Positions 18,224-40,618 of a stretch of DNA of 64,000 bases are shown here, piece by piece. Under the pieces are notes generated by a model. The model was not told the DNA's origin. It saw only the letters and a program-made list of their open reading frames with translations, and ran no database searches. The stretch covers positions 36,727-100,726 of the IMG/VR virus record IMGVR_UViG_3300032038_000036. One strand, written 5' to 3'. How positions within the stretch are numbered: the stretch's first letter is position 1; each line of letters begins with the position of its first letter. Both the position numbers and the translations under genes were made by a program. The stretch comes from a virus. Taxonomy: Duplodnaviria > Caudoviricetes.

Positions 18224-18231
18224 CAATAATT

Positions 18232-19535: not shown

Positions 19536-19580
19536 GTTTCACAAACTCATTATTTTTCCTTAATTCCTTTTTATTAACAT

Positions 19581-20157: not shown

Positions 20158-20177
20158 CAATAATATATAGAGAGAAA

Positions 20178-20498: not shown

Positions 20499-20534
20499 TT
20501 TTATTTTTAATTACAAATATAATTATATAATAAA

Positions 20535-21650
20535 ATGAAAGACTTATTTGAGTTTTTATCAGATAATATTTATGAAAAGGATATATTCCTTGAGACAGTA
20601 AATATGATTGTTGATGAAACAATTAATGAAAGTTTCCAAGCATCAATATTAACTGAATTAGCAAAGAGAATTAAAGATGCTGAAAAGGAACATGCTGACC
20701 AAGATAAAAAAGAAGAACAAAGATACAAAGAAGAAGGTCGCGGTTATAAGCCAACAAAGACAGCAAAAACTTTCGCATCTATTTTTGGTCCATTAACAGA
20801 AACTCCAAGATGGGGTGACAAGAAAACTGGTATTCGTGGTTTGAAATGGTCAGAAATTAAAGATAGTGATTTCAAACAATATAAAGGTGATGATAAAGAA
20901 TTTGTAAAGTTCTTAAAATCAGTTTATGCAAAGAAAGCAATTGCCGATATGATTGTTTGTGCTCCAGGTACTAAAGATATTGTATGTTTTATTAAAGGAT
21001 ATGCAAAAACTTTAGGAGATGTAAGAGTATATTACTTTGCAACAGAAGGTTGGAAAAAGGGTGTTCAAGAGAAAACTGAAAAGAAATACAAATATGATGT
21101 ACGTTCTTTGAAGGTTAATGAAACACTTGAATTGATTAAAGATTTTGACGTATATGTTCTTGAAGTTACAGAATCAATGATTAAAGATTATGATGAACTT
21201 CATAAAGATCGTACTGATGCTCAAAAAGGTTCAATTGAAATGGACGAAGCAAGTATGAAAACTTTGCTTAAACAACAAAAAGCTCGTTATGATGCAATGG
21301 TTAAAGAAATAAAAGCAAAGAAACTTCAAGATGATCCAAATATTTTATTCAATGACATAAAGAAAGCAAATGATGATGTTGTTGCTTTGTTCCAAAAGGT
21401 AATGTCAAAACCTGAAAATATGGATATGCGTTTTGATTTATCAGATTTAATGAGATATGTTTCTTATGCATATGAACAATTCTACAAATCAATGAAATCT
21501 CTTAGAACTGCTAAACGTAGTGAAGATAGATATGGTAAGGGATATGGGAAATATGATAAAGAACGTTCTGATGAAGAAATTCGTGATGCAAAAGAATATC
21601 TTGAAAAGGTAAACAAAATGGTTAAGGAGATTGAAGACCAATTGAAATAA
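20535..21650 (+). CDS. hypothetical protein, possibly head-packaged
   Basis: 371 aa; N-terminal IYE/INES resembling T4-type prohead protease sites. Confidence 0.7.
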   Translation: MKDLFEFLSDNIYEKDIFLETVNMIVDETINESFQASILTELAKRIKDAEKEHADQDKKEEQRYKEEGRGYKPTKTAKTFASIFGPLTETPRWGDKKTGIRGLKWSEIKDSDFKQYKGDDKEFVKFLKSVYAKKAIADMIVCAPGTKDIVCFIKGYAKTLGDVRVYYFATEGWKKGVQEKTEKKYKYDVRSLKVNETLELIKDFDVYVLEVTESMIKDYDELHKDRTDAQKGSIEMDEASMKTLLKQQKARYDAMVKEIKAKKLQDDPNILFNDIKKANDDVVALFQKVMSKPENMDMRFDLSDLMRYVSYAYEQFYKSMKSLRTAKRSEDRYGKGYGKYDKERSDEEIRDAKEYLEKVNKMVKEIEDQLK

Positions 21651-21890
21651 CCTTAAAGATAATACTATTTATAATTACGGGCAGTCATAGGTTGGTGCAC
21701 AGGCCTATGAATCGAAGCAGCCTGTTAGCTACGGCAGCAGGGGAAATCGTTCGTTCCGTTCCTTAAGTGCGTGGTCTGAGGAATCTATAGAAGCGTTAGT
21801 TAGAGTTGTTGCACCTTTGTATCTTCGGATATGTGCCACATCCTGTAGAGGGCGAGAAACCTCGTTGAAACTCGAAAGAGCCACGTGTAT

Positions 21891-21959
21891 CGGGAGTTAG
21901 CTCAACGATAGAGCCATGGATTTTACTGTGAGACGGTTGTTTAACTCAATCACTCCCGA
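21891..21959 (+). ncRNA. degenerate tRNA-like RNA with 6-nt anticodon loop
   Basis: CGGGAGT/ACTCCCG acceptor; CATGG-ATTTTA-CTGTG; T loop TTTAACT. Confidence 0.55.
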
Positions 21960-21964
21960 CAAAA

Positions 21965-22025
21965 TTGGTTACGCAGTAAATGGTACATGTATGCTAGCTA
22001 TTTGGTTCGATTCCAACGTAACCAA
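21965..22025 (+). ncRNA. anticodon-less tRNA-like RNA
   Basis: TTGGTTACG/CGTAACCAA stem plus T arm. Confidence 0.55.
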
Positions 22026-22216
22026 CTAATAATTTGGATGCCTGCATTATCTTTTTTGACGGGTGAAAGCAGATGGAAGATAAAAACCAGCTCGGCCATT
22101 AAACAACAGAATGTGTCCAAATAAATAATAGGTTGAATAATGACGTAACCTTAATCGTGATGGTCATTCGTGTGGTTCGGTGCCTAAGACTGCGTTAATG
22201 GAACAAGGACACTTAT

Positions 22217-22291
22217 GGGTCGGTGGCGCAAATGGTAAGACGCGCTTGCCTTAGAAGCAAGATCTTGGGGGTTCGACTCCCCCTCGGCCTA
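22217..22291 (+). tRNA. tRNA-Leu(UAG) with short variable loop
   Basis: CTTGC-CTTAGAA-GCAAG. Confidence 0.8.
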
Positions 22292-22420
22292 CGCCTAATA
22301 GAATACTTGGGAGACTAAGAAAGGAAACGTAATAAAGATACATAAGGCCTTTGTTGATTTATTACAGACTCATCGCAAGATTTTCCTGGAGTCGGCAGTG
22401 GAATACCAAGAGGCAGATCT

Positions 22421-22496
22421 AGGAGCATAGCTCAGCTGGTTCAGTAGCGTCAGTCTTACAAACTGAAGGTCATGGGTTCGATCCCCATTGCTCCTA
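22421..22496 (+). tRNA. tRNA-Val(UAC)
   Basis: TCAGT-CTTACAA-ACTGA. Confidence 0.9.
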
Positions 22497-22743
22497 CGAA
22501 TACGATACCGCGTTTATGGGTAAGTTTATCCGGTTAAAATAAAACCACCTTATAACTCATTATTCAATGACTTGGTGATAGGAACTTATCGTTACCTATG
22601 AAAAAAGGAAATCATCAAGCTGAAAGAGATAGTATAACGACCTTGTCATGGCAACGTTATACATTTTTAGTAAGACCAGTTATGTGGGTATTTGTATGTC
22701 GCGAAGTACAAATATTCATTGGTTAGAATAATTGAGTGTTTAT

Positions 22744-22822
22744 GCGGCTGTGGCGCAATTGGTCGACGCAGCGGTCTAAGAAGCCGTCCTTCGGGGTATG
22801 GGTTCGAGTCCCATCAGCCGCA
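22744..22822 (+). tRNA. tRNA-Leu(AAG)
   Basis: loop CTAAGAA. Confidence 0.85.
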
Positions 22823-22970
22823 CAAAGAGATACTAAGAGGTTTACTCAATGATGTATTCAAAGTACAAGGATATTAGAGTATGGGATAGCGGGCGCTAAC
22901 AGTGTGATACAGAACTTCGCACACTTAGTAACAACATAGGCGAGTGTACAGTAACTTATGGCTCTTAAAT

Positions 22971-23058
22971 ACCTTCTTGGTGGAAATGGTAGACACGCCA
23001 GTCTAAGAAACTGGTCCGAAGTAACAGTAGGGTGCGGGTTCAAATCCCGTGGGAGGTA
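22971..23058 (+). tRNA. tRNA-Leu(AAG)
   Basis: CCAGT-CTAAGAA-ACTGG. Confidence 0.88.
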
Positions 23059-23062
23059 CAAA

Positions 23063-23128
23063 TAGAACTTATCCGGTGAATGCGCGCGGGATGAGAATAC
23101 TAGGAGGGTTCGACTCCCTCAGTTCTAT
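23063..23128 (+). ncRNA. tRNA-like RNA: acceptor + T arm, no canonical anticodon arm
   Basis: TAGAACT/AGTTCTA; GAGGG-TTCGACT-CCCTC. Confidence 0.55.
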
Positions 23129-23160
23129 TTATATAATAAATTAATATAATAGAGAGAAAA

Positions 23161-23409
23161 ATGATTACTCATGATTTAAAGACAATTGTAAAAGGTTCTG
23201 CCGTTCTTGATTGTGTAAAGGCAGGTGGTATTGCTGTTTATCATATAACAGTAGAAGATGGTACAATTTATTCACTTGATATTGATTTGTCTGATAAGCA
23301 TGATGTTGGAGAAACTGCTACATTTATGTCTCATTATGATAAAGCTTTAATATTGATGAGATGGATAAGACGTGCAATTGATAATGAAGAATTGTATAAG
23401 ATAAACTAA
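23161..23409 (+). CDS. hypothetical protein
   Basis: 82 aa; same AGAGAGAAAATG start context as 20178. Confidence 0.7.
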   Translation: MITHDLKTIVKGSAVLDCVKAGGIAVYHITVEDGTIYSLDIDLSDKHDVGETATFMSHYDKALILMRWIRRAIDNEELYKIN

Positions 23410-23537
23410 TTTGTTGTATCAATATATTTTTATACGAGGATAGGCTTTAATGCCTGCGGCTTGAACCGCTGCTGTCCGATTTATAACGGCTAACGAGATT
23501 TAATCTCCGTGAGAACAAATGGATCCTCGTTTTTAAT

Positions 23538-23616
23538 GGCCCGATGGCGGAATTGGTCTACGCAGCTGTCTCAAAAGCAGTGCTTCGGCGTCTGGGTTCG
23601 AATCCCAGTTGGGCTA
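23538..23616 (+). tRNA. tRNA-Leu(CAA)
   Basis: loop CTCAAAA. Confidence 0.9.
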
Positions 23617-23753
23617 CTCGCAATTGACATTACTTATGTAATTAGAATGATTTGGAGAAAAAAATTTCTAAATCATTCATTTTTTGTGAAAATATTTTGT
23701 CCATAAGACTATTTTATATTTATTATTAATTAAATTAAAAGAAAATATCGCAA

Positions 23754-23864
23754 ATGCAATTAGTCAATACATATAAACAAATATTAGACCAAACATTAGA
23801 TAATGCTTGGAATAAGGATTATGCGTTAAATTTTGACCACTTGCAGAATGATATGGAAGGATAA
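23754..23864 (+). CDS. 36 aa leader peptide MQLVNTYKQILDQTLDNAWNKDYALNFDHLQNDMEG
   Basis: short ORF containing antiterminator strand GACCACTTGCAG. Confidence 0.6.
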   Translation: MQLVNTYKQILDQTLDNAWNKDYALNFDHLQNDMEG

Positions 23865-23895
23865 TAAGAATATAACTATAAAATGATATAGCTGC

Positions 23896-23932
23896 AAGTG
23901 GTTAGGTGAAAAACTTAACCACTTATTTTTTT
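23896..23932 (+). terminator. intrinsic terminator of attenuator 2
   Basis: AAGTGGTTAGGT-GAAAA-ACTTAACCACTT-ATTTTTTT. Confidence 0.8.
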
Positions 23933-23963
23933 GTAAAAATTTCTAAAATATTTTCATAAATAA

Positions 23964-24001
23964 TTTGAAATTAAAACAGAAGATACTATATTATAATTGT
24001 A
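23964..24001 (+). promoter_or_regulatory. putative promoter of tRNA block 2
   Basis: TTTGAAAT...TACTATATTATAATTG. Confidence 0.5.
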
Positions 24002-24312
24002 ACAAAATTAAATATTATTTAATAACAAATATTATTTGATTTTTAGTTCTTTGAAATATTGAACTCAAGAGAAATAAAATCCACTGGGTTATTGAAGAAT
24101 AGGTTCAATTCCGATTCTATAACGTAGTCAGCCGGTACTCCTAAATAGGCAAAAGGAGCAATAATTCAGTAAAGGTACAAAGGTACTATATATGAGGGAT
24201 TGAAAATTTCCATGGGAATTTGAAAATCAGGGTAAAGTGACCCACCACATGTAGAGCAAGGATTCGCACTTAAATGAACATTATAGAAGAATAGTACTGG
24301 ATTTTTATAAAT

Positions 24313-24383
24313 TGGATCATGGTGTAATGGTAACACGCAAGATTTTGGTCCTTGCGTTCTGGGTTCGAGCCCCGGTGATCCAA
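24313..24383 (+). tRNA. tRNA-Gln(UUG)
   Basis: loop TTTTGGT. Confidence 0.88.
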
Positions 24384-24425
24384 CAAATTGATGTAGAAAT
24401 TTTTTTGAAATTTTTCTTACAAAAG

Positions 24426-24527
24426 TTTGAAATATTGAAATTAAGTTCTATATTAATATTGTAATTTTCAAATAATATTTAGAAAAATGTTATTTGATTA
24501 TTTACACTTGAGATCTTTGACATATTG
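24426..24527 (+). promoter_or_regulatory. promoter plus boxA-like leader
   Basis: TTTGAAAT...CTATATTAATATTG then AGATCTTTGACATATTG. Confidence 0.55.
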
Positions 24528-24806
24528 GTACAACAAAATAAATTTAATAAGGATCCTCTGAGATGGGTGCCCTAAGGTAGAAGCTTGAGGATTGAAATGG
24601 ATAATGTTTTATGCAACATCAAAAGCAGCTGTTTATTCAGCGGCGCCCGTGGGTATTAATCCCGATGAAAATATCGCCTTATTAAAACAAAAAACTGATT
24701 TGGAAGAGGAGTGGTGGAAAACCCCTTTCAATGGGATGCCAAGCAACCCAGCGAAATAGTTCAGTAAATATATGTAGTAATACAAACAGAATTTCCTTAT
24801 CATTCT

Positions 24807-24879
24807 GGTCTTATAATTTTAATGGTTAGAATACCTGATTAGTAATCAGGATGTTTGAGTTCGAATCTCAATGGGACCT
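24807..24879 (+). tRNA. tRNA-Thr(AGU)
   Basis: CCTGA-TTAGTAA-TCAGG. Confidence 0.85.
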
Positions 24880-25021
24880 CAATATGAATGCCTTCGATGT
24901 AAATTGGAAGATTATTTAATAAGTTGGAATAACATTCATAATTTAGGCCGAGAGAATACCACAGGAGCAGATTGAAATAAGTATTAGCTGATGTGGAACA
25001 ATATTCTTGATGACGCCATTT

Positions 25022-25095
25022 GCTCTGTTAGCTTTAATTGGTAGAGCGCCGCACTTGTAATGCGGATGTTATCGGTTCGAGTCCGGTACGGAGCT
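25022..25095 (+). tRNA. tRNA-Thr(UGU)
   Basis: CCGCA-CTTGTAA-TGCGG. Confidence 0.9.
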
Positions 25096-25152
25096 CCCGA
25101 AAGTACGATAGGTTTCAGGAATTTTCCCATCGTACTAAAAAATTCCAAATTT

Positions 25153-25226
25153 GGGCTTGCATGTACCAAGGCTGGCGAGGTTCCCTTGCAAGGAACTTGT
25201 GGAGAGTTCGATTCTCTTCGGGTCCA
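25153..25226 (+). tRNA. tRNA-Ala(UGC)
   Basis: GTTCC-CTTGCAA-GGAAC; G3.U70. Confidence 0.8.
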
Positions 25227-25378
25227 CAAATACAAAACTTCTATAAAGGAAATTTACTTAAGCTGCAGATTTTGTAAAAAGTATGTTATAGATGCGTCCG
25301 TTAGAAGTAATTTGATAGTTCATTTCCCTATGAAGGTTAAGGAGTCGGTAGAAGTAGAATCCGGCGCGGACATTTTTT

Positions 25379-25450
25379 GCTCCTGTAGCTCAGTGGTAGA
25401 GCAGTAGACTGTTAATCTATTGGTCGTGGGTTCAATCCCCTCCGGGAGCG
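25379..25450 (+). tRNA. tRNA-Asn(GUU)
   Basis: loop CTGTTAA. Confidence 0.9.
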
Positions 25451-25558
25451 CGAACATGGCGAAACATATCCAGTAACTATAGGTGAACAGAAAGGTGAAC
25501 AGCAAATAACCGAGTATGACTGGTGAATTTCACAAATCATGAATGATGCTGCATTCAT

Positions 25559-25684
25559 TTGTTTTTAGTTTAATTTGGATAAAACACCCGGATGAAACCG
25601 GGAGATGTAAAGAGCTGCTTAATTAGGCCTGATTGCAATGAGGAAACCGGTTAAGTTAGTTGGGTTCGAATCCCACAAAATAGC
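25559..25684 (+). ncRNA. tRNA-like RNA with ~50-nt insert at the T stem and 6-nt anticodon loop
   Basis: D arm GTTT/AAAC; CCCGG-ATGAAA-CCGGG; TGGG-TTCGAAT-CCCA. Confidence 0.55.
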
Positions 25685-25698
25685 AAATTAATAAAATT

Positions 25699-25772
25699 GG
25701 GGATATAGCTATAATGGTCAGAGCGGCGGCCTGTTAAGCCGATGGTTGTGGGTTCGAATCCCTCTGTCCCCG
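25699..25772 (+). tRNA. tRNA-Asn(GUU)
   Basis: loop CTGTTAA. Confidence 0.88.
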
Positions 25773-25858
25773 CTAGTGGTTTGAACTTGAATTAACAAGC
25801 GAAAGGATAAAAGCTTTCACACGAATATAAATCCGAAAATGCTAAATTATCCAATGAT

Positions 25859-25947
25859 GGCGCGATGATGGAATTGGTAGACATAGCAGACTTAAAATCT
25901 GCTGGGCCGTAAGGTCCGTGCGGGTTCGAGTCCCGCTCGCGCTACCA
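25859..25947 (+). tRNA. tRNA-Leu(UAA)
   Basis: GCAGA-CTTAAAA-TCTGC, CCA. Confidence 0.92.
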
Positions 25948-26073
25948 ATAATATGAGTGTGGAAATAACTTGTAACTCAAGTAGAGAGTTTCCAGTAAAT
26001 GGGTGGCGAGAAGAGTAAAGAGCTTACAATTTAGCCATATTATTATTTTGGATCACTTAGGTGACAGATATTT

Positions 26074-26148
26074 GGTCCATTGGTATAACGGTTAGAATAT
26101 GTGACTGTCGATCACAAGATGAGGGTTCGACTCCCTCATGGACCGCCA
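26074..26148 (+). tRNA. tRNA-Asp(GUC)
   Basis: TGTGA-CTGTCGA-TCACA, CCA. Confidence 0.9.
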
Positions 26149-26169
26149 AATAACTAAGTGATATATTTT

Positions 26170-26243
26170 GGTGGCGTGGTTTGAATGGTTACAATGCCGG
26201 ACTGTCAATCCGTGTGGTGGGGGTTCGAATCCCCTCGTCACCG
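26170..26243 (+). tRNA. tRNA-Asp(GUC)
   Basis: loop CTGTCAA. Confidence 0.85.
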
Positions 26244-26409
26244 CAAATAGAAAATAATAACTTATAAATATAAATTAAAAACATATGAAAACAATGAAAC
26301 GAAAACGTTAGTTGTGTATGTTTCCTGAGAGAAATTGGTATTATGTTTTAACCAAAAGAAGCATGCACATAAAATCAAAATCAAAAACAAATGAATTTAT
26401 TATGTGTAT

Positions 26410-26486
26410 GCCCTCTTAGCTGAGTTGGTTAAAGCTGCGGCCTTTTAAGCCGAGGATCCAGGGTTCGAGTCCCTGAGGGGGTACCA
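26410..26486 (+). tRNA. tRNA-Lys(UUU)
   Basis: loop CTTTTAA, CCA. Confidence 0.9.
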
Positions 26487-26489
26487 TTT

Positions 26490-26564
26490 GCTCTCATGGC
26501 GTTAATTGGTTAGCGTACCAGACTTTTAATCTGCGAGGTCAGGGTTCGAATCCCTGTGGGAGCA
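26490..26564 (+). tRNA. tRNA-Lys(UUU)
   Basis: loop CTTTTAA. Confidence 0.88.
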
Positions 26565-26578
26565 CAATTATAAATTAT

Positions 26579-26652
26579 GCCTCTGTAGCTGAGCTGGTTA
26601 AAGCTGCGGCCTCTTAAGCCGAGGATCGTGGGTTCGAATCCCACCGGAGGTA
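26579..26652 (+). tRNA. tRNA-Lys(CUU)
   Basis: loop CTCTTAA. Confidence 0.9.
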
Positions 26653-26678
26653 CACAACGGTTTCATATTGTTTAATAT

Positions 26679-26765
26679 GGCTCCGTGGCGAAATTGGTAG
26701 TACGCATCAGACTTAAAATCTGAGGTCCAGAAATGGGCGTGTGGGTTCGACTCCCACCGGGGCTA
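26679..26765 (+). tRNA. tRNA-Leu(UAA)
   Basis: TCAGA-CTTAAAA-TCTGA. Confidence 0.92.
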
Positions 26766-26932
26766 CAAATTAAATTTGGATGTGACTGCAGCAATATATA
26801 TAAAATTCATATTTAAGTGGAAGCTGTCACGGCTGCTTACCTGATATAAAGTAAGTAATAAATGTGTAAATGTTGACTTGCCTTAAGAAAGCAAATGTCA
26901 AATCCACTCGGTGAATTAATATGAATTTCCTT

Positions 26933-27005
26933 GGGGAGGTCGTTTAGTGGTCCAGGACAGTAGGCTTACATCCTACCAACCAGAGTTCGATTCTCTGCCG
27001 CCCCA
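26933..27005 (+). tRNA. tRNA-Val(UAC)
   Basis: GTAGG-CTTACAT-CCTAC. Confidence 0.82.
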
Positions 27006-27224
27006 CTCTTGCATGCCGTGCAAAAATTCATGGAGAAGTTAAATGGCTAAAGGTTGTTCTTTGAAGTATTAATGCGTACGACAATTATGGAGAAGATATT
27101 CATGAATCTTATTAGTGATTAGATAAGTTGATAATGGCGTAATTAACCATTTGATGATATTCTTTTTGGTAATAAGTTTAACACAGCTCCAATACAGTTC
27201 TCGATAATCTGGGAAATCGAAGTT

Positions 27225-27297
27225 GGTCCGTTGGTTGAACGGTAACAATGCCGGCTTGTCACGCCGTGTGGTACGGGTTCGATTCCCGTACGGACCG
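27225..27297 (+). tRNA. tRNA-Asp(GUC)
   Basis: loop TTGTCAC. Confidence 0.85.
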
Positions 27298-27393
27298 CGA
27301 ACATGGCTCATTTAGGGTATTCTGAATAAATGGCTGCAACTGTTTTGAAAGTTACCTATTAAATGAACAAATCGTTTCAATTGCAGTTGAAAC

Positions 27394-27479
27394 TTATGTT
27401 TAGTGTATGGGTTGCATGCTGGCGGCAAACAGTACGGCTGTTACCGCCGGAGGATAAGGTTCGAATCCTTGAGCATAGC
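27394..27479 (+). ncRNA. tRNA-like RNA with elongated anticodon arm
   Basis: CTGGCGG-CA-AACAG-TACGG-CTGTT-A-CCGCCGG plus T arm. Confidence 0.55.
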
Positions 27480-27752
27480 TATTTGTTGTATTGCAGGTAA
27501 CAATATAACAAATTATATGGGAAGAAATGGAGATAGTTTGGTTAAGTCGGTTTGTTGAAAATAGATTTAACACGGGCTGTTGAGACGATATAATTCTCAA
27601 CAGTAACAAGGAACAGATCCGAGCCTTTTAAATTCGGACAGCGATAAGTTGTGGCTTATCAGTGGTTGAATCTAAACTTATACCACGCATGAAACACTGC
27701 TAAATACGTTTAGCCGGTTCGTGGAAATTCCGGTTTTAATTTCCACCTTTTT

Positions 27753-27837
27753 GGGGTGGCTGCTCTGATGGTGGAAGGGCGGCGGACTGTAAATCCGTTA
27801 CTATGAAACACAGGGGGTTCGAATCCCTCCCACCCCA
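27753..27837 (+). tRNA. tRNA-Tyr(GUA)
   Basis: GCGGA-CTGTAAA-TCCGT. Confidence 0.88.
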
Positions 27838-27908
27838 CTGGCATCAGAACTGAGGTTCGAATCCTCAGAGAAGTAGTACTACTTAGTTTAGAAATGGTTA
27901 AAACAGTG
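27838..27908 (+). ncRNA. circularly permuted tRNA-like RNA
   Basis: T arm TGAGG/CCTCA, AAGTAG/CTACTT hairpin, D arm GTTT-AGAAATGGTTA-AAAC. Confidence 0.55.
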
Positions 27909-28004
27909 TAAGTCCGAGTTTTATTAATAAATTTAAAAGTTAAGAGTTATGAAGGAAGCAGTATTTTATTGCGGTATAGATGACTCAGAAGCATTCTATA
28001 CCAA

Positions 28005-28098
28005 GCCTGAGTAACGGCACCGGTCTGTAAAACCGATCTGCATCAACAAATTGTCGTAGTGGGCTCGCAGTAAGTAGGTTCGAATCCTACCTCAGGCA
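28005..28098 (+). tRNA. D-armless tRNA-Tyr(GUA)-like RNA with long variable arm
   Basis: GCCTGAG/CTCAGGC; CGGT-CTGTAAA-ACCG. Confidence 0.6.
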
Positions 28099-28111
28099 CA
28101 ATTCTTAACAA

Positions 28112-28248
28112 TGCCGGTTTATCACAGTATATTGGTAACTGTAGCCGCCCCGTACAGGCGGGTTCAACCAATCGAAAGTATATAGCTCGAGACAATATAT
28201 ATGAATAGAAGTTGAATATGTGAATAGGTTCGATTCCCACGATGGCAC
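28112..28248 (+). tRNA. aberrant tRNA-Tyr(GUA)-like RNA with ~55-nt variable insert
   Basis: CCGCC-CCGTACA-GGCGG; TTCAAC...GTTGAA arm; bulged T stem. Confidence 0.5.
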
Positions 28249-28364
28249 AATGGTTTATAATAATTAATCGAATTAATCTTGGAGGTAAAATCTCGCTCCT
28301 TACGATGAAGCGTTTTTATTTCGGTAAAATTCCGATATGGGAGTTAAATAGATTAAAGAGATTT

Positions 28365-28437
28365 GCGCTCTTAGCTCAGTTGGCAGAGCAACGGGCTTTT
28401 AATCCGTGGGTCCTGGGTTCGAGTCCCAGAGGGCGTA
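28365..28437 (+). tRNA. tRNA-Lys(UUU)
   Basis: loop CTTTTAA. Confidence 0.9.
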
Positions 28438-28443
28438 CAATTT

Positions 28444-28515
28444 GCCTCTATGGCAGAAGGGTTCATGCACCGGACTCTTAATCCGGCTATTAGGGTTCGA
28501 GTCCCTATGGAGGTA
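28444..28515 (+). tRNA. tRNA-Lys(CUU)
   Basis: CCGGA-CTCTTAA-TCCGG. Confidence 0.88.
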
Positions 28516-28521
28516 CAATAT

Positions 28522-28596
28522 CGCGGAAGCAGTGTGGTGGTCGCATACAAGGCTCATAACCTTAGTGGTGGAGTTCAATTCTCACTTCCGCAACCA
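28522..28596 (+). tRNA. initiator-like tRNA-Met(CAU)
   Basis: C1:A72 mismatch, loop CTCATAA, CCA. Confidence 0.75.
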
Positions 28597-28785
28597 ATTA
28601 TATTCTATCAGGTCGGAGTGCAGAGAAGTACTAATTAGTAAATTAGTAGGTATGACGAACATTAGGAAAATCCGGCACGTAGGTGGTACAGAATTATGGG
28701 AAGTTGCAAATTCGCTATAATTTCCGAGGCCGTAGGATGCGTTTAGGCGGTCATACGTTGGAAGGCGCAGGTGGGTAGAATATAT

Positions 28786-28858
28786 GGGGAGATAGTGTAA
28801 CGGTCAGCACGGGAGTCTTATACACTCGATAGTCTGGGTTCAAATCCCGGTCTCCCTA
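28786..28858 (+). tRNA. tRNA-Ile(UAU)
   Basis: GAGT-CTTATAC-ACTC. Confidence 0.8.
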
Positions 28859-29097
28859 CTCGTGCCAAGGTAGAGCGATGCAAGCCAGTATCTTGTGCTA
28901 GTCTTTCGCCATGTAGATGACGGGAAGTAATGTAAAATCATTGCAACATGGTACAAGCCCTCCCTATTCGGAACACGTAAGTGGTAAAGGTAAGGACTTT
29001 ATAACCGAAAGGTGAATTTGATAAGGATGCCGAATAGCCGAAAATGTATGAAATTGAAGTGAGTAGGTGAGTTACCAGTCTCGAAATACTGGTTAAT

Positions 29098-29170
29098 GCG
29101 TCTCTGGTCTAATGGTTAAGGCACTGGACTCCAAACCCAGTAGATGAGGGTTCGACTCCTTCGGGGCGCG
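29098..29170 (+). tRNA. tRNA-Trp(CCA)
   Basis: loop CTCCAAA, G73. Confidence 0.85.
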
Positions 29171-29302
29171 CTTATTATTTTGATAGTTCTGAAAAATTTT
29201 AATCAGAATGGGCGACATTGACTTGCTTAGCCCAGTGTTGAAATGCAGACCATTTAGGTAATCCTGCAAAGTATAATCTAAAAAAATCGAGGAGTCAAAT
29301 AT

Positions 29303-29442
29303 GGGTAGGTAACATAAAAAACGATTTAAAACTTCGGTCGTTGTTCTCCGTAAGGTAGTGTAGATTGTGAGTTACTTCAAAGGATTAATGTATTTGTCTG
29401 TTAAACAAAAGAGTGTTGGTTCGAGTCCAACCCTACCCGCCA
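29303..29442 (+). tRNA. tRNA-Asn(GUU) with module in D loop
   Basis: GGGTAGG/CCTACCC-G-CCA; TTTGT-CTGTTAA-ACAAA; module 29331-29378. Confidence 0.8.
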
Positions 29443-29537
29443 CTTATAAGGGAACCGAGTTATGGGGTACTCGGGGATAGGAAAGTTTGGAAACGTATTT
29501 GTCCTGTAAATCAGTCTTTCAAATAAACAACCCTTAT

Positions 29538-29608
29538 GGAGCATTAGGCTAACGGTAAACTGCTCCCGTGCTCTGGGAGTGTTCGAGGTTCAATTCCTTG
29601 GTGTTCCG
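29538..29608 (+). tRNA. tRNA-Ser(GCU)-like with short variable loop
   Basis: CTCCC-GTGCTCT-GGGAG. Confidence 0.6.
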
Positions 29609-29614
29609 CAAATT

Positions 29615-29744
29615 GGTGACGTAGCTAAACGGTAGATAAACGACTTTATTCGCTGTTACTCAGAAATGATGTTGTAGAACAGAGTTACTTCAAAGCATTA
29701 ATCAGTCAAATTAAGGAAAGTTGGTTCGACTCCAACCGTCACCG
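29615..29744 (+). tRNA. tRNA-Asp(GUC)-like with module in D loop
   Basis: TTAAT-CAGTCAA-ATTAA (A33); module 29643-29691. Confidence 0.7.
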
Positions 29745-29781
29745 CAATAATAAATTTTTGAAAATTTTATATTTTCAATAT

Positions 29782-29929
29782 TGGGTAGAAGTATAAGGGT
29801 AAAACAAATTTCAAAATGACTTTATTCGCTGTTACTCAGAAATGATGTTGTAGAACAGAGTTACTTCAAATTTAAATGTACATTTCGTCGTAATCGAAAG
29901 AGATGGTGGTTCGAGTCCACCCTACCCAA
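29782..29929 (+). tRNA. tRNA-like RNA (GUA or CGU anticodon) with module in D loop
   Basis: TTTCG-TCGTAAT-CGAAA; module 29819-29867. Confidence 0.65.
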
Positions 29930-29998
29930 CAATTCTCGTCGAGCAGCTGGTTTTCAGGGGCTTGTCACCAGCTGGGAACAAAAAAGACCGCCCACCAT

Positions 29999-30085
29999 GT
30001 GTCTATGGCCGAGTGGTTGAAGGCAGCAGACTGTTAATCTGCCGTGGAGAAATCCCCATCGTAGGTTCGATCCCTACTGGGCACG
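29999..30085 (+). tRNA. tRNA-Asn(GUU) with class II variable arm
   Basis: GCAGA-CTGTTAA-TCTGC; long V arm. Confidence 0.82.
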
Positions 30086-30092
30086 CCCTAAG

Positions 30093-30201
30093 TACTCTAT
30101 GGTGAAATTGGAAACTGACTTGAAGGCCAAAAGTTAGTAATACACGGAGGAACTGTAAACCTCTGCTTTAATGCATCTCGGTTCGAATCCGAGTAGAGTA
30201 C
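30093..30201 (+). tRNA. tRNA-Tyr(GUA)-like with extra hairpin in D loop and enlarged anticodon loop
   Basis: ACTGACTT..AAGTTAGT insert; GGAGG-AACTGTAAA-CCTCT. Confidence 0.6.
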
Positions 30202-30223
30202 TATGTTATATTCTTGCAAGAAT

Positions 30224-30295
30224 CGGGATTTGGTGTAATGGTAAGCACGGGGTTGTATTTGCGCAACCAGGTGAAGTTCGAATCTTCGGTCCCAA
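30224..30295 (+). ncRNA. tRNA-like RNA with 8-nt anticodon loop
   Basis: GGTTG-TATTTGCG-CAACC; D and T arms present. Confidence 0.55.
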
Positions 30296-30562
30296 CAAAT
30301 AACTATCGGTGTCCGAGTGAAACGGATATGTTTCTATATTGATGTGTCGGCGGACTGTGTTAAGACTTAGAATTAGGGCGCTACTTATCGACGGATAAGC
30401 AATCTTGAAAGGGGTACTTAACAGCATCAAGAAATAAACAAGGTTAAAAGTCAAGCAAGCCCGGGATAAAGTGAGGAACTAAGTTACTTGTTTTGGAAAC
30501 GATCACGGCAGGGATATAGCACCTGCAAATAATGGGTTCGACTCCCATGGCCGCTACAAGAT

Positions 30563-30700
30563 TGCCATTTAGCTCAGTCGGGTAGAGCACGTAACAATAC
30601 TTTTGTCGCTGGTTACGTAATATCATTAATTACTGTTGAAGATGAGAGTTACTTCAGCCTTTTAAGCTCGGGGTCGTGGGTTCGAGCCCCACAGTGGCAA
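30563..30700 (+). tRNA. tRNA-Lys(UUU) with 64-nt module insert in anticodon stem
   Basis: removing 30592-30655 restores CGAGC-CTTTTAA-GCTCG. Confidence 0.78.
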
Positions 30701-30827
30701 CTAATAAAAATATATCAGCATCTAAAACAGGGCCGAAGGAGAAACAATAGGCGCGCATTGTTCAATGGTTTGGGTCTGTCCGATGAGAAAAATCTTTGAG
30801 GCTAAGCCATGATGGATATATTTTTTC

Positions 30828-30865
30828 TTTGAAATTTTATTTATATAAAACTATATTATTATTGT
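30828..30865 (+). promoter_or_regulatory. putative promoter of last tRNA block
   Basis: TTTGAAAT...ACTATATTATTATTG. Confidence 0.45.
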
Positions 30866-30882
30866 TAATAAACAAACAGTTT

Positions 30883-30955
30883 GGGATGTAGGTCAAACGG
30901 TTAAGATGTCTGCCTGTCACGCAGCACGGAGCGGGTTCAACTCCCGTACGTCCCG
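30883..30955 (+). tRNA. tRNA-Asp(GUC)
   Basis: loop CTGTCAC. Confidence 0.85.
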
Positions 30956-31152
30956 CATAATATTGTTAAAAAGATGACATGCTCCTAAGGTAGGAATAAA
31001 TCTTTTTATGCAAGAGTCAATAACGATGGTTCTGATAGAATAAAAATTAAATTCAGAGAAATTAGATATTCAGCGCATGCGGGCTATCGTGGGAAGTACA
31101 ACCACAATTAGGGCGAGGCATAGTTGTTATTGCACAATATTATTTCTTCGTT

Positions 31153-31226
31153 GGGCCCGTAGCTCAGTTGGTTAGAGCAGCAGACTCATAATCTGAAGGT
31201 CGTGGGTTCAATCCCCTCCGGGCCCA
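31153..31226 (+). tRNA. tRNA-CAU (Ile2-like body)
   Basis: GGGCCCG/CGGGCCC; loop CTCATAA. Confidence 0.88.
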
Positions 31227-31245
31227 CAAATTATTATTAATATAT

Positions 31246-31316
31246 CGCGGTGGTAGAGCAATGGTAGCTCGTAAGGCTCATAACCTTGAGACGCAGTTCG
31301 AATCTGACGGCCGCAA
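31246..31316 (+). tRNA. initiator-like tRNA-Met(CAU)
   Basis: C1:A72; GTAGAGCAATGGTAGCTC D arm. Confidence 0.75.
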
Positions 31317-31323
31317 CTAATAT

Positions 31324-31394
31324 CGTGGGATAGTGTAAAGGTAACATTAAAGGCTCATAACCTTTAGCTTCTGGTTCGACTCCAGATCCCGCAA
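31324..31394 (+). tRNA. initiator-like tRNA-Met(CAU)
   Basis: C1:A72; AAAGG-CTCATAA-CCTTT. Confidence 0.8.
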
Positions 31395-31644
31395 CTCCGA
31401 GCCCGTAATAGGGACACGTACCTGACGTAAGCGGAAACGATAGGTAAAATGAATTGGGAGGCTCAGTAAGCTTTGTGGTAATACACGCTAGCCTATCTAC
31501 CTATGCCGAACGACTCTTAACCAATTCAATGAGAAATTTATCAGGTTGTTCTCATATTTTTATAAAGAACTTAAATAGATCACGTGGAGGCAGACCACCC
31601 GACCGGAGTAATTAACCGGAAATATGCATTAGTTCTTTATATTT

Positions 31645-31727
31645 GCCGGAATGGGACAGTGGTCGACTCCACTTGACTTGTAATCATGCTCCGTAAGGAC
31701 GCGTCAGTTCGAATCTGACTTCCGGCT
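31645..31727 (+). tRNA. tRNA-Thr(UGU) with class II variable arm
   Basis: loop CTTGTAA; V arm TCC-GTAA-GGA. Confidence 0.78.
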
Positions 31728-31916
31728 CTATCGTGTACATACCACTTGCTGGATTATCTGCACGTAAAAAATCAAAAGAGGTCGCGCCTCAACGTAACGT
31801 TAGTAATCCCTGAATAAATATGTGAGTGAGAGCGTATTCTATTGTTTGTTCAAATTGACTATTCTATCGTAAGTGAGAAAGTTTTTCTGTTTCGGTAACA
31901 ACTTAAAACAGTATTT

Positions 31917-31989
31917 GGGGTCATGGTATAGTCGGCTAACACTTCTGCCTTGCACGCAGAGATCCCGGGTTCGAAGCCCGGTGGCTCCA
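31917..31989 (+). tRNA. tRNA-Ala(UGC)
   Basis: TCTGC-CTTGCAC-GCAGA; G3.U70. Confidence 0.88.
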
Positions 31990-32247
31990 CACAGAACATA
32001 CTACTAAGTATGAGAAATACAAAAAGTTAAGTACTGGAAATTGGCTTCTAAACGGCGGATTTGTTCCGTGTTAGTTGGAAGAGAAAACTGGGGTACAGGC
32101 TATAAAACTCTGATATCGGAGATGCCCAGGGCTTAAGCACGCGAAGGCCGTGTACAGGAATACTGTAGGTGACAGTGATACGTCTGCATGGAATATATAC
32201 AGTAAGCAATCTTAACCCATACTTAGCAAGTGGACTGTCAATATACT

Positions 32248-32358
32248 AAACAAACCTTGTTGTATTATAGAGATACTTCATATTTTTATTGTTTGTTTGA
32301 TTTTTATTTTATTACGATTACATTTTTATTTCTTTATAAGAGTGTTACGGGTTTGTTT
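32248..32358 (+). ncRNA. Y-RNA-like module RNA 6 with U-rich loop
   Basis: AAACAAACCT-T-GT-TGTA-TTATAGAGA-TACTTC...TCTTTATAA-GAGTGTT-AC-GGGTTTGTTT. Confidence 0.7.
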
Positions 32359-32379
32359 ATTTTTTTAAGAGAAAAATAT

Positions 32380-32451
32380 TGGGCTATCGTATAACGGTTA
32401 TTACACAAGATTTTGGTCCTTGTAATGCAGGTCCGATTCCTGCTGGCCCAA
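32380..32451 (+). tRNA. tRNA-Gln(UUG)
   Basis: loop TTTTGGT. Confidence 0.85.
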
Positions 32452-32842
32452 CTAATTAACTTGCTTAACATAGTTCATGACACTGGTTACCGTTTTAGCA
32501 ATTGTAGGTATACATGCAATGAGGTTATCGGAGAAGAATCAAGGAACCGATGATTTAAAAATATGATTTAAATCAGACTTCACCAGAAGCAAGTTTTTAA
32601 TATAATTTGATGAGTACAGGCCTCTGAGTAGTACTGGGGTAAGTAATAAGCAAATGTCGACTTCTTCTTATTACGTTGGTTGGATCTAAGAAATAGTCCT
32701 CGCCCAGTGAAATGAGTTGAGTTTCGTGAGAGCTCATAAGGTGCAACGCAACAGAAGAGTAAAATCTCAAAGAGATAATGCAATCCGCGTTTTCTAGCCG
32801 TGGTTTCTTCAGTCCGTAGCTCGCAAATTTACTCATCAATAT

Positions 32843-32914
32843 ACGGACTTAGTATAACGGTTATTATGACGGTCTCCAAAACCGTGGATGTGGGTTCGAT
32901 TCCTGCAGTCCGTG
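32843..32914 (+). tRNA. tRNA-Trp(CCA)
   Basis: ACGGT-CTCCAAA-ACCGT. Confidence 0.9.
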
Positions 32915-32998
32915 CTTAATATAAATAATGGAAAATAAATTCATCACTTATGGGAAGTTATTTATATTTAAGGGACGCTGCGTGATGAACAGTGTAAA

Positions 32999-33067
32999 AG
33001 GCTATTAGTATATCGGTTAGTATGCTTGGTAGTGCAAGAGAGGCGGGTTCGACTCCCGTATAGCTTT
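32999..33067 (+). ncRNA. tRNA-like RNA with truncated anticodon arm
   Basis: CTTG-GTAGTG-CAAG (4-bp stem, 6-nt loop); intact D and T arms. Confidence 0.6.
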
Positions 33068-33092
33068 CAAATTTTGTTGTATCAATTTATTT

Positions 33093-37581: not shown

Positions 37582-38220
37582 TTATTGCTCGCTTTTTTGT
37601 TTTGGATAAACTCCGATATAATCCATGATATGCATGGTATCGTCATCTATCATTTCTTGAGTAATATAAGGGTTATGTTTCTTTGCATATAATGGTAAAC
37701 ACCAAGAACTCCAATCCATTTGTTTTATATTCTCCCAGAAACCTTTATCAGTGTCCCAATTGAATAAATGACAGTAATATTCTTTTATTGATGTAAATGG
37801 TAAGTTGTCATTTCTAAAATATGTTTTCCATGGGTGATGAGTTCCATATTCCCAAATCATATCTTTATAATCAATAACAGCAAAATTTGCTTCTTTCAAA
37901 TAAAGTTCTGCAATATCTAAAAACTTCTTATTATTTGTATTATCTTCAAGATAAATACGAATTATTGAACCTGGAAACTCAAATTTGAAATACTTACAAA
38001 TATCTGGAATAGTTGCAAAACTTATATTTTTTGATTTATAAAAACCATGTGCAGTATGCCAACGATCTTTGCATCTTGAAACTCGTACATCAAATATTCT
38101 TACACCTAAGTCATATTGGGTTTTAATATCTAACTTTTGACATCTCCAAAAAATAGATATTAAATTATGTAAAGGATTTATTGGCTTATCGTATGTAAAT
38201 GAATCGTGTGATGCTATCAT
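37582..38220 (-). CDS. PI-PLC X-box-like phosphodiesterase
   Basis: SHDSFTY, CQ..I..QY..GVRIFDVR, AHG motifs. Confidence 0.75.
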   Translation of the reverse strand: MIASHDSFTYDKPINPLHNLISIFWRCQKLDIKTQYDLGVRIFDVRVSRCKDRWHTAHGFYKSKNISFATIPDICKYFKFEFPGSIIRIYLEDNTNNKKFLDIAELYLKEANFAVIDYKDMIWEYGTHHPWKTYFRNDNLPFTSIKEYYCHLFNWDTDKGFWENIKQMDWSSWCLPLYAKKHNPYITQEMIDDDTMHIMDYIGVYPKQKSEQ

Positions 38221-38222
38221 AT

Positions 38223-38660
38223 TTATTCAACAACTAATTCTTCTTCAGGATTTATATCGTCTTCTTGGTCATCAGGAATACCGTTATGATTATCATCTTT
38301 TACTGGTCTTCCATTTTCATCAAGAGGTGGCACTTTAAATTTTGAATATGAAAATTCTGTCCATGCTGATGTTAATCCACCTGATGCAAATATACCTGCA
38401 ACTGCGCCAATGTATAAAGCCATATCAGATAAATTAATTGTCATTGTATGATTAAAGAATATATCAACAAGCATACCAACAATAGGTACAATTAATAAGA
38501 TTATACCTACAAACAAAGTTGCTAATAAGAAAAAGTTTAATGCACTAACATTATTATTTTCTTTAACAAGTTTTGCAAAATAATTATCGTTGTCTTCTTT
38601 CTTTTTCATGCCTTTATATAATCCGAAAGTAATTGTTCTTAATATTTTTTGTCCAAACAT
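38223..38660 (-). CDS. two-TM membrane protein (holin-like candidate)
   Basis: two hydrophobic segments, acidic C-terminus. Confidence 0.6.
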   Translation of the reverse strand: MFGQKILRTITFGLYKGMKKKEDNDNYFAKLVKENNNVSALNFFLLATLFVGIILLIVPIVGMLVDIFFNHTMTINLSDMALYIGAVAGIFASGGLTSAWTEFSYSKFKVPPLDENGRPVKDDNHNGIPDDQEDDINPEEELVVE

Positions 38661-38892
38661 AAAATTGTGATATATTTAATGCCTCAATATATCAAATCCT
38701 ATATATTAATAATAACCCAAAAAATTGATTTATGTTAATCTGATGGAAATCAAATAATTAACTAATGATAATTGGGTTAATTTAAATTAATTATTTCATA
38801 GTTATAAGAGAAAAAGCATATATTTCTATACCAATTTTGTTATTTTGAACTATATTTAATTGTAATTAATTGTAAAAAGTACAATAAATATT

Positions 38893-39638
38893 ATGAAAGA
38901 AATAATGGTAGTATTAGGAGTTCTGCTTATATGTATTTTTCTAATAAAAATAAAAGATGAAATATAATATGAAGACAGTAAAGAACTTTTTTAAGAACGC
39001 ATGGGATTGCTACTGCCAAGCTATGGCACTTGCATATTATCCTTATTATATGAAGCATGAAACTTCATCAAATGATTAATAGACAATAAATAACAAACAA
39101 CAGTAAAAATATTAAAAATTAGAATTATGAAAACAATTAAAAGAATTACAAAAACATTAGTTCATGGTTATATTAACGGTATGAAAGAAAGTGCTAGATG
39201 GCAGTACGGATATTTATACGAGAAATAACCAATAATTAAATAAAAGATATGAAACATAATTTTATAAAGTGGTTCATATCGGATTATATAGAGATTATCA
39301 AGTATATTAAAACTTTAATAGAAAAACAAAGAATTAAAAAAATTGTTAATCGGTAATTATGAACAAGTTAGTTAAAAAAATTAAAGAATATTTTAGAGTA
39401 AACGCTTCACAAACAATTGAAGAGAAACATCAAAAATATGCATATAGATTTTATTAATTATGAAAACAATAAAACGAATTGTAAAAAAAATAATATCTGG
39501 TAATGTTCTTATGACACCAACAGGTATGATACCAATGAATATATGAAAACAATAATTGTTGGTATATTGTTTATATTTGGACTTATAATTGCAAAAGCAG
39601 TTGATACATATTTTCAGTCCAAACATTATTTTAAGTAA
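38893..39638 (+). other. operon of seven microprotein genes (about 24-36 aa each)
   Basis: ORFs starting at 38893, 38969, 39127, 39249, 39359, 39460, 39543; promoter motif upstream; terminator downstream. Confidence 0.7.
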
Positions 39639-39664
39639 ACTCCTTAAAACAACATACAACCATT

Positions 39665-39692
39665 AAAAAAAGGCGAGCATTAGCTCGCCTTT
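39665..39692. terminator. bidirectional intrinsic terminator
   Basis: AAAAAAAGGCGAGC-ATTA-GCTCGCCTTT. Confidence 0.75.
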
Positions 39693-39694
39693 CA

Positions 39695-40618
39695 TTATCT
39701 ATCTCTAAATACGCCTCCCTCATATCCTTGAATAGTTTTATCTATTTCAGATTTGTCTATTCGATATTGACCCAATTCACAGTATTCTTTTTCTATTTCA
39801 ATACAAGTATAATTTCTTCCTAATTTATTTGCAACAACTCCTGCTGTACAAACTCCTGCAAATGGTTCGTAAATCCTATCTTCAGGTTTTGATGATGCAA
39901 GAATTAATTTTGCAAATAATTTTTCAGATTTTTGTGTTGGATGATCTGTATTTTCTGGCATTGACCAAAATGGTACTGTAATATCAAACCAAATATTTGA
40001 TGGATATGTCATTCGCATATTACCTTCTTCAGTTGATTCCCAATCCTTATTATTTCCATTTTTATCTTTATATGGAGCTAATACTTTCTTTTTGATTTTA
40101 ACTGCTTCAACATCAAAATAATAATTTGCTTTATCTTTAACAACCATATAAATATCTTCGGAATTATTCTTCCAATTATTCATTGCACCACGACCTTTAT
40201 CTCGTGCCCATGTTATTCTATTAATAACATCATTTGTTGCAACTCCAGTTGTATCAAGATTTTGTAAAGCAAGATATTCAATAAATGAAGTTTTCCAATC
40301 ACCACAAACATACATTGTTCCATTAGGCTTCAAAACACGCAAGCATTCCTTGAATATATCATAAACATATTTCAAATATTCATCTTGGTCCATTGCTTTG
40401 AATGTTGTTGTGCTATATTGCTTGGTTAAATTATATGGAGGATCTACTATGATTAAATCAAAATATTTATCTGGAATTGTTTTGTTAATTTCATTGAAAT
40501 CTCCATGAATTATCTGATTCTTATTTTCAATAAATACATGATCTATTTTTGGAGCAACTATACCTATTTCCTCAGCTGATAATGTTATAGTTCTATTCAT
40601 TGAGGCTCTTTCTTTCAT
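39695..40618 (-). CDS. N4/N6 DNA methyltransferase (beta class)
   Basis: DPPY, HPTQK, EPFAG motifs. Confidence 0.9.
   Translation of the reverse strand: MKERASMNRTITLSAEEIGIVAPKIDHVFIENKNQIIHGDFNEINKTIPDKYFDLIIVDPPYNLTKQYSTTTFKAMDQDEYLKYVYDIFKECLRVLKPNGTMYVCGDWKTSFIEYLALQNLDTTGVATNDVINRITWARDKGRGAMNNWKNNSEDIYMVVKDKANYYFDVEAVKIKKKVLAPYKDKNGNNKDWESTEEGNMRMTYPSNIWFDITVPFWSMPENTDHPTQKSEKLFAKLILASSKPEDRIYEPFAGVCTAGVVANKLGRNYTCIEIEKEYCELGQYRIDKSEIDKTIQGYEGGVFRDR

Follow-up and report, generated by a model that had tools for sequence, protein, structure and literature searches.

Seven conserved microprotein genes of a T4-like rumen jumbo phage and their possible action at the host cell envelope

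A conserved operon of seven small genes

The 64-kb window analysed here comes from a T4-like rumen jumbo phage and is part of an IMG/VR viral contig of 100.7 kb, which is estimated to be 35% complete. In what follows, WIN denotes the window, that is, the whole stretch of DNA under analysis, G000 the whole contig, L-numbers other viral contigs and P-numbers database proteins. Seven small open reading frames (ORFs), s1 to s7, occupy positions 38893-39638 of the window; all lie on the + strand, start with ATG and encode 24-36 residues each (Table 1). An earlier note on this DNA had described seven tightly packed ORFs with a promoter motif before them and a terminator after them, and each of these elements was located: the seven frames, the element CTATATTTAAT at 38850-38860 and a hairpin at 39669-39692.

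Table 1. Coordinates of the small genes, their putative transcription signals, neighbouring genes and genes of related loci. Positions refer to the window unless a contig is named.
Feature	Coordinates	Strand	Remark
PI-PLC X-domain-like phosphodiesterase, 212 aa	37582..38220	-	cluster neighbour
tm145, 145-aa protein with two membrane spans	38223..38660	-	divergent neighbour of cluster
Promoter-like element CTATATTTAAT	38850..38860	+	about 33 nt upstream of s1 start codon
s1, family A: 24-aa single-pass membrane microprotein, conserved K-D tail	38893..38967	+	
s2, family B: 36-aa cationic amphipathic peptide, Tyr/Pro-rich core (W-D-x-Y-C ... YYPYY)	38969..39079	+	
s3, family C: 33-aa cationic amphipathic peptide, s2 paralogue	39127..39228	+	
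s4, family D: 35-aa basic helical peptide	39249..39356	+	
s5, family E: 32-aa cationic peptide, Tyr-rich tail	39359..39457	+	least conserved of the seven
s6, family F: 28-aa cationic amphipathic peptide, invariant TPTG[M/I]IP core	39460..39546	+	
s7, family G: 31-aa single-pass membrane microprotein, conserved K-[KR]-x-D tail	39543..39638	+	start overlaps s6 stop (ATGA)
Hairpin terminator, 10 pairs (6 G-C), then T-run	39669..39692	.	between operon and convergent methylase gene
N6/N4 DNA methylase	39695-40618	-	between operon and terminase, convergent with operon
Operon signal-peptide proteins	L022:2921-3319, L032:3048-3446, L028:1128-1550; L024:190-543, L165:5368-5784		

The ORFs are separated successively by 1, 47, 20, 2, 2 and -4 nucleotides (nt). 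Six of the seven end in TAA, and s6 ends in the TGA of its overlap with s7. Among the stops of the contig (n=85), TAA is used 72, TGA 10 and TAG 3 times; in the seven small ORFs TAG occurs neither as a stop nor internally. An alternative upstream ATG of s2 at 38957 would give a product of 40 amino acids (aa), and the relatives favour the start at 38969. On the opposite strand an ORF of 81-88 codons (39393-39659; 88 codons from a TTG start) overlaps s5-s7. It is probably no gene, because L026 lacks it and has no antisense run longer than 39 codons.

The packing of the ORFs was compared with that of random first-order Markov sequences of the same composition. Seven ATG-initiated ORFs of at least 24 codons cover 90% of the 746 bp at the locus. 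The random sequences contain 1.2 such ORFs on average (15% cover) and five at the most, and none of 5000 reaches the observed arrangement.

Relatives of the interval were fetched by way of the terminase and of tm145, the divergent neighbour of the cluster. About 14 distinct versions of the interval were obtained from related rumen phage contigs of up to 435 kb. The order A-B-C-(D)-(E)-(F)-G on one strand is kept in these approximately 14 relatives, with lineage-specific losses. Family G, always the last peptide, is the most widely retained (15 distinct orthologues), followed by family C with 13, family B with nine, which share invariant K, W, Y and P positions, and family A with eight, which are always 24-25 aa long and always stand first in the operon. 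Seven orthologues with an invariant core represent family F, further members of which occur in L043, L054, L106, L151 and L174. Family D has five orthologues (WIN, L020, L026, L022, L032). Family E was found in WIN and L020 only, with weak relatives of similar tail in L034, L106, L165 and L175. The ATGA overlap between the F and G genes is kept in L020, L022 and L026.

The selection acting on the ORFs was read from the ratio of non-synonymous to synonymous change (pN/pS). In each of the six families tested, the annotated frame gives the lowest pooled pairwise pN/pS (0.28-0.72), with synonymous differences near saturation. Family B has the smallest in-frame value, 0.28, followed by D with 0.40, F with 0.46 and the three families A, C and G with 0.66-0.72; for family B the shifted frames give 1.07-1.31. 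The unsaturated pair WIN/L026 shows a pS of 0.345 and a pN of 0.106, that is, a ratio of 0.31 as against 0.87 and 1.86 in the shifted frames. The ORFs are collinear, conserved and under purifying selection, and the locus is present in RNA libraries. Coding conservation, on which the earlier note had staked its operon, is thus found. 

The chief alternative at this level is that the seven are chance ORFs in an AT-rich spacer or lie in a non-coding RNA region. Its points are that no meaningful Pfam or PHROGs match was found for any of the seven and that Shine-Dalgarno motifs are absent upstream of all of them. Motifs of this kind precede only 4 of the 85 genes of the contig, below the background rate of 7.8%, and the upstream regions of the phage's genes are A/T-rich; since Shine-Dalgarno motifs are rare genome-wide, small ORFs lacking them are normal here. 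Rfam returned a terminator hairpin alone, below threshold. The packing described above and protein-level conservation in the face of saturated synonymous change also argue against chance, and the chance-ORF reading, contradicted by the conservation data, is extremely improbable. We consider it very likely that the seven ORFs are real protein-coding genes.

Putative transcription signals flank the genes. In nearly all relatives the first small ORF is preceded, at a distance of approximately 30-45 nt, by an element CTAT[A/T]TTTAAT. Its core, TAT[A/T]TTTAA, is enriched eight-fold in the 90 nt upstream of the genes of the contig (12 seen, 1.5 expected), and the window has four copies of the promoter-like motif where 0.8 would be expected. 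The motif-bearing genes include the portal gene and a gene for 1839 aa. Upstream regions with the motif are found, for example, at window positions 13463, 47702, 59643, 20535, 3975 and 53968. TAT[A/T]TTTAA(T) may be the phage's own promoter class. Nine genes with the motif had no matches in PHROGs, so the class is not assignable to early or late expression. The spacer between tm145 and s1 (38661-38892) is 94% identical between WIN and L026, whereas the synonymous sites of the adjacent ORFs differ by 35%; the spacer is under strong non-coding constraint.

Downstream, the hairpin is the sole terminator-like site within 38200-40000. A hairpin with a T-run follows the last operon gene in at least eight loci (L026, L031, L035, L022, L027, L032 and L038 among them), and the stems differ. 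The cluster is covered by contigs from four rumen RNA-library studies, three of them at 99-100% identity. The interval 38670-38886 is uncovered by these contigs, and those of three studies begin at 38894-38914, which is unusable as a transcript start without a DNA run. The phage sequence occurs in sequencing runs of gut metagenomes and metatranscriptomes from cattle and sheep.

Membrane spans and a superfamily of amphipathic peptides

Two kinds of product are encoded. The first and the last gene, s1 and s7, specify single hydrophobic spans with short conserved Lys/Asp tails; in s1 the 15-residue hydropathy maximum is 3.5. The remaining five, s2-s6, have no hydrophobic signal sequence. In s2, s3, s5 and s6 the maximal hydrophobic moment (0.70-0.96; 0.83 in s3) lies at the N-terminus, where the first 14 residues carry a net charge of +2 to +5. 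The net charge is +5 in s3, s5 and s6. Peptide s4 is amphipathic further in. The earlier statement that most of the peptides begin with a cationic amphipathic helix thus applies to four of the seven, and not to s4 or to the spans s1 and s7. For s3, AlphaFold2 with a 42-sequence alignment predicted one helix over residues 2-31 (mean predicted local distance difference test score, pLDDT, 86).

Families B and C can be aligned with each other on tyrosines that are invariant and on lysines, at positions 5 and 9, that are conserved. Over their first 52 nt, s6 and s3 are 77% identical (repeat D1). A natural intermediate is P0019 (L045:4063-4167; 34 aa, from a phage contig of 33% G+C), in which a C-type middle is joined to an F-like tail. 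The B/C alignment, the 5' identity of s3 and s6 and this hybrid together indicate that B, C and F are one tandemly duplicated superfamily. By their sequences, s2, s3 and s6 belong to a diversifying superfamily whose members begin with a putative amphipathic helix rich in Lys and end in a part that is aromatic or rich in proline. Elsewhere in the 100-kb contig their common N-terminal motif is absent, and no larger ORF carries it.

This architecture resembles that of precursors of ribosomally synthesised and post-translationally modified peptides (RiPPs), in which case the Lys-rich N-terminus would serve as leader, and modification would fall on the Tyr/Pro-rich C-termini as cores. Tandem paralogues with a common N-terminal part, differing conserved C-terminal cores and invariant Tyr positions fit such precursors. 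The putative leader, however, is only about 12 residues long and the whole of s3 is predicted as one helix. Moreover, no radical SAM, YcaO or lanthipeptide-type enzyme and no protease/transporter is a conserved neighbour in the window or in approximately 10 independent contexts. A RiPP function is therefore very unlikely.

The distribution of the superfamily was examined with a B+C profile against 1.84 billion representative proteins. It recovered 32 clusters at E <=0.001; 30 consist of standalone peptides 29-45 aa long, and the other two, which are longer, are low-complexity repeats. Most of the clusters looked up derive from metagenome assemblies, and not one has an informative name. The 40-aa form of s2 has four close relatives, P0001-P0004, all unnamed. 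A degenerate DNA pattern for the family-F core returned mostly noise from viral contigs: 13 of more than 118 matches lie in small ORFs, and about 7 of them are likely true members. No family-B sequence turned up in 185,579 prokaryote species genomes, blastn of the cluster region against 50,697 phage records gave no match, and none of the seven peptides had anything meaningful in Pfam, PHROGs or Rfam. By these searches the B/C/F family is phage-only and confined to large phages of gut and rumen metagenomes. The operon had been called hidden. This is so in a relative sense only, as s2-like and s3 sequences already stand, unnamed, in public protein collections; at 24 and 28 aa, s1 and s6 are shorter than the usual gene-calling length.

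The earlier note had gone on to suggest membrane-active or host-mimicking signalling peptides. The first half of this proposal is plausible, judging from the s1 and s7 spans, the predicted amphipathic helix of s3 and the membrane, secreted and PLC-like neighbours. The second half, which would make them secreted communication peptides of the arbitrium/Phr type or mimics of host signals, was not supported. The small size of the peptides speaks for it, as do the hydrophobic starts of s1 and s7, which could be read as signal peptides, and the A-K-A before the tail of s7 in the window. This A-x-A is not conserved: across the s1 and s7 orthologues the hydrophobic stretches precede conserved Lys/Asp anchors with no conserved signal-peptidase site, and the K-[KR]-x-D of the s7 orthologues is typical of a membrane anchor. 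The amphipathic peptides lack a signal sequence, no receptor-like gene is found among the conserved neighbours, and the search of 185,579 species genomes with family B found no homologues. The database relatives are all metagenomic and unnamed, and the sole likeness to a host protein is a short borderline match to AzuC, discussed below. Signalling thus appears highly improbable.

Neighbouring genes and genome setting

In the window the cluster is flanked by tm145 and the PLC-like gene on one side and by the methylase on the other (Table 1). The protein tm145 is 56-71% identical in the relatives, with invariant loop and span residues and a charged tail; searches of Pfam and PHROGs gave it no family match, and no holin family. 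The window copy of the PLC-like protein matches PF00388 with E = 0.013 only, and its homologue P0057 scores above the cut-off of that family (28.5 bits). It has 38 related clusters, all from metagenome collections and none with an informative name. The methylase gene is missing in L002-L005, where the operon adjoins the terminase, and present in the closest relatives L020 and L026 and in L031; from this distribution it looks like an insertion.

In many relatives of the tm145 lineage a gene for a signal-peptide protein lies inside or next to the operon. Two unrelated types occur, one DUF2807/GIN- and ToastRack-like (approximately 133 aa), the other helical (118-140 aa), and the window has neither. 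The family-A span in this lineage is always followed by a B/C helix within 1-28 nt. A second lineage, of 20-25% G+C, has the order secreted helical protein, 69-aa two-span protein, B/C peptide and E- or F-type peptide; the two-span and B/C genes overlap or lie at most 6 nt apart, and the cluster stands among SbcCD, GrpE and NAD-salvage genes. In the distant L106, F-type and E-type peptides lie beside a PLC-like homologue, a secreted helical protein and a membrane protein, and in L045 and L176 the peptide adjoins a lipoprotein and small membrane proteins. The recurring theme of the neighbours is the cell envelope. A general rule that a membrane-span gene stands immediately upstream of the B/C peptide was considered and given up as not universal: it holds in two lineages and fails in L174 and L177. 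Complex prediction for the 69-aa two-span protein and the adjacent B/C peptide of L165 gave a score of 0.00, which is no verdict and counts neither for nor against binding.

An envelope-related role could be exerted at the end of infection. As accessory lysis factors, tm145 would be a two-span holin, s1 and s7 holin regulators and the cationic peptides disruptins of the outer membrane, with the PLC-like enzyme helping. The two spans and charged tail of tm145 and its PLC-like neighbour are in keeping with this proposal, and the promoter-like motif shared with the portal gene hints at late expression. There is a precedent in the disruptin gp28 of phage phiKT, a 56-aa cationic amphipathic peptide, predicted to be helical and membrane-seeking, that replaces spanins (bioRxiv 10.1101/515445). 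The peptides studied here are likewise phage-encoded, cationic and amphipathic, and s3 is predicted to be helical. Unlike gp28, they have half its length, form several distinct paralogues and adjoin no endolysin gene; their C-terminal cores, each conserved and distinct, are more in keeping with specific binding than with general disruption of membranes. In relatives that are 98% and 83% complete, the sole phage-lysozyme match lies approximately 130-180 kb from the cluster, which weakens the lysis proposal, although T4-like phages scatter their lysis genes. The search covered only two endolysin families, and Amidase_2 was not found. In other phages the peptide family lies among DNA-metabolism genes, and, as noted, tm145 matches no holin family. 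A part in lysis is thus unlikely.

The envelope of the infected cell could also be altered against a second phage. T4 Imm and Sp block injection by a second phage in this manner. Superinfection exclusion or a block of injection would suit small membrane proteins with secreted or lipoprotein partners in a variable, accessory module, and close relatives differ in gene content, a feature typical of conflict genes. The peptides do not resemble Imm, Sp or an exclusion family of PHROGs, however, and purifying, not diversifying, selection dominates. The amphipathic peptides carry no export signals and so would stay in the cytoplasm. We regard exclusion as quite unlikely, somewhat more so than lysis.

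In this lineage the cluster adjoins the terminase and lies near the portal gene. This position, the N-terminus common to several small proteins and their net positive charge would be expected of virion-internal peptides, whose N-terminus would act as a capsid-targeting sequence and which would be packaged with the DNA and injected. T4 itself encodes very small host-directed proteins, the 26-aa Stp among them, and its internal-protein locus shares a capsid-targeting N-terminus. The peptides recall these in their size, in the hyper-variable locus and shared N-terminal motif and in their T4-like phage. They differ in that they have no sequence similarity to Stp or the internal proteins, the motif is confined to peptides of at most 40 aa and is on no larger protein of the contig, and in other phages the family lies away from virion genes, in the company of SbcCD, GrpE and NAD-salvage genes. 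The peptides also co-occur with exported and membrane proteins. Packaging into the virion is very unlikely.

The contig encodes a T4-type portal and a T4-type large terminase in addition to the N6/N4 methylase, and related contigs are as long as 236-435 kb. ARAGORN identified 61 tRNA genes on the + strand within approximately 19 kb of the window (13934-33068). The G+C content of this tRNA island is about 0.40, as against about 0.26 elsewhere. Odd anticodon loops are seen in three of the tRNA genes, at 27394, 30223 and 32999.

Proposed action at the inner face of the membrane

The interpretation that we favour, with slightly better than even confidence, is that the locus is a real seven-gene microprotein operon and an envelope-directed accessory module of large phages. 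Single-pass spans from the first and last genes, s1 and s7, would stand on either side of five small peptides of the cytosol. The site of action would most probably be the cytoplasmic membrane of the host, on its inner face. There the helices would rest on the membrane or dock at it in the fashion of AzuC and SpoVM, and would alter where membrane-associated proteins are found or how active they are. The module would work with the membrane-spanning microproteins and, in relatives, with the co-encoded secreted proteins or lipoproteins. That the peptides act at the membrane in this way has, in our estimate, not quite an even chance. Membrane binding, the protein targets and the biological role, be it host takeover, control of envelope stress, exclusion or the timing of lysis, are what we infer from the peptides and their surroundings.

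Counterparts of both kinds of product exist in bacteria. MgtS, AcrZ, KdpF and MgrB are bacterial single-span regulatory microproteins that bind larger membrane proteins. Peptides s1 and s7 are similar in being single spans of 24-31 aa with short charged tails, and different in being phage-encoded, in having no sequence similarity to them and in standing always in an operon with amphipathic peptides. For the amphipathic peptides, the closest likeness is to AzuC of E. coli and to SpoVM of B. subtilis (26 aa), with which they share their size, a Lys-rich amphipathic N-terminal helix and the lack of a signal sequence. AzuC is a 28-aa amphipathic protein of the inner membrane that binds GlpD and raises its activity (PMC8915982, where MgtS and AcrZ are also cited).

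The AzuC sequence of the E. coli K-12 record aligns with the B/C profile over 17 columns, with an hhalign probability of 70%, so that its Tyr14 falls on the invariant Tyr; the Cys after this Tyr is also found in family B. The alignment score, 20.8, exceeds the maximum of 600 shuffles (18.6), and at this length the match does not separate homology from convergence. The Atlas feature score of AzuC, 0.83 in a list of 0.83-0.86, lies in a range often reached by shuffled proteins and has the value of a lead only. AzuC is moreover encoded by a single gene on a dual-function small RNA and is confined to a few enteric bacteria, whereas here tandem paralogues are present in rumen phages; their tails, Tyr/Pro-rich or TPTG[M/I]IP, are conserved, and membrane spans are encoded alongside them. 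The peptides are accordingly treated as ones that may work like AzuC, not as members of its family.

Several observations weigh against the envelope-directed interpretation. Most of the relatives were found through tm145, and the linkage of tm145 to the cluster is therefore partly by construction. The pN/pS of the two hydrophobic families, 0.66-0.72, is only modestly under that of their shifted frames (0.77-0.81). The RNA-library contigs give no strand, level or translation, and DNA carry-over is possible. The envelope-neighbour pattern is frequent and not universal: in L174 four tandem amphipathic paralogues adjoin the terminase with no clear membrane partner, and in L177 a lone peptide lies beside a sigma-like gene. 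The AzuC match, with its 17 columns at 70%, came from a top-10 Atlas list.

A bolder form of the proposal is speculative, with a small chance of being right in full. The peptides would then constitute an AzuC-like superfamily that duplicates rapidly in large gut and rumen phages and is paired with spanning microproteins. Docked on the inner side of the host membrane, its members would move, or adjust the activity of, specific host proteins, either enzymes peripheral to the membrane or sensors of envelope stress, the core of each paralogue being directed at a different target. This would amount to viral use or mimicry of a regulatory-microprotein mechanism of bacteria.

Microproteins of fewer than 40 residues are mostly missed by annotation, and few of those encoded by phages have a known role, T4 Stp and phiKT gp28 being examples. 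Fremin et al. (2022, Cell Rep 39:110984; cited in PMC11364881) reportedly described conserved phage genes of at most 50 codons, many of them predicted to be membrane or secreted proteins and often missed by annotation. Compared with those small-gene families, the present one is a collinear seven-gene operon with a defined superfamily and recurrent partners, and the seven peptides are an uncharacterised addition to the small genes of phages. Should they prove to be lysis or exclusion factors, the repertoire of peptide-sized phage effectors would be widened. If they act as AzuC and SpoVM do, they would provide short, synthesisable peptides for target finding, and giant phages would share the small-protein logic by which their hosts govern membrane-associated processes.

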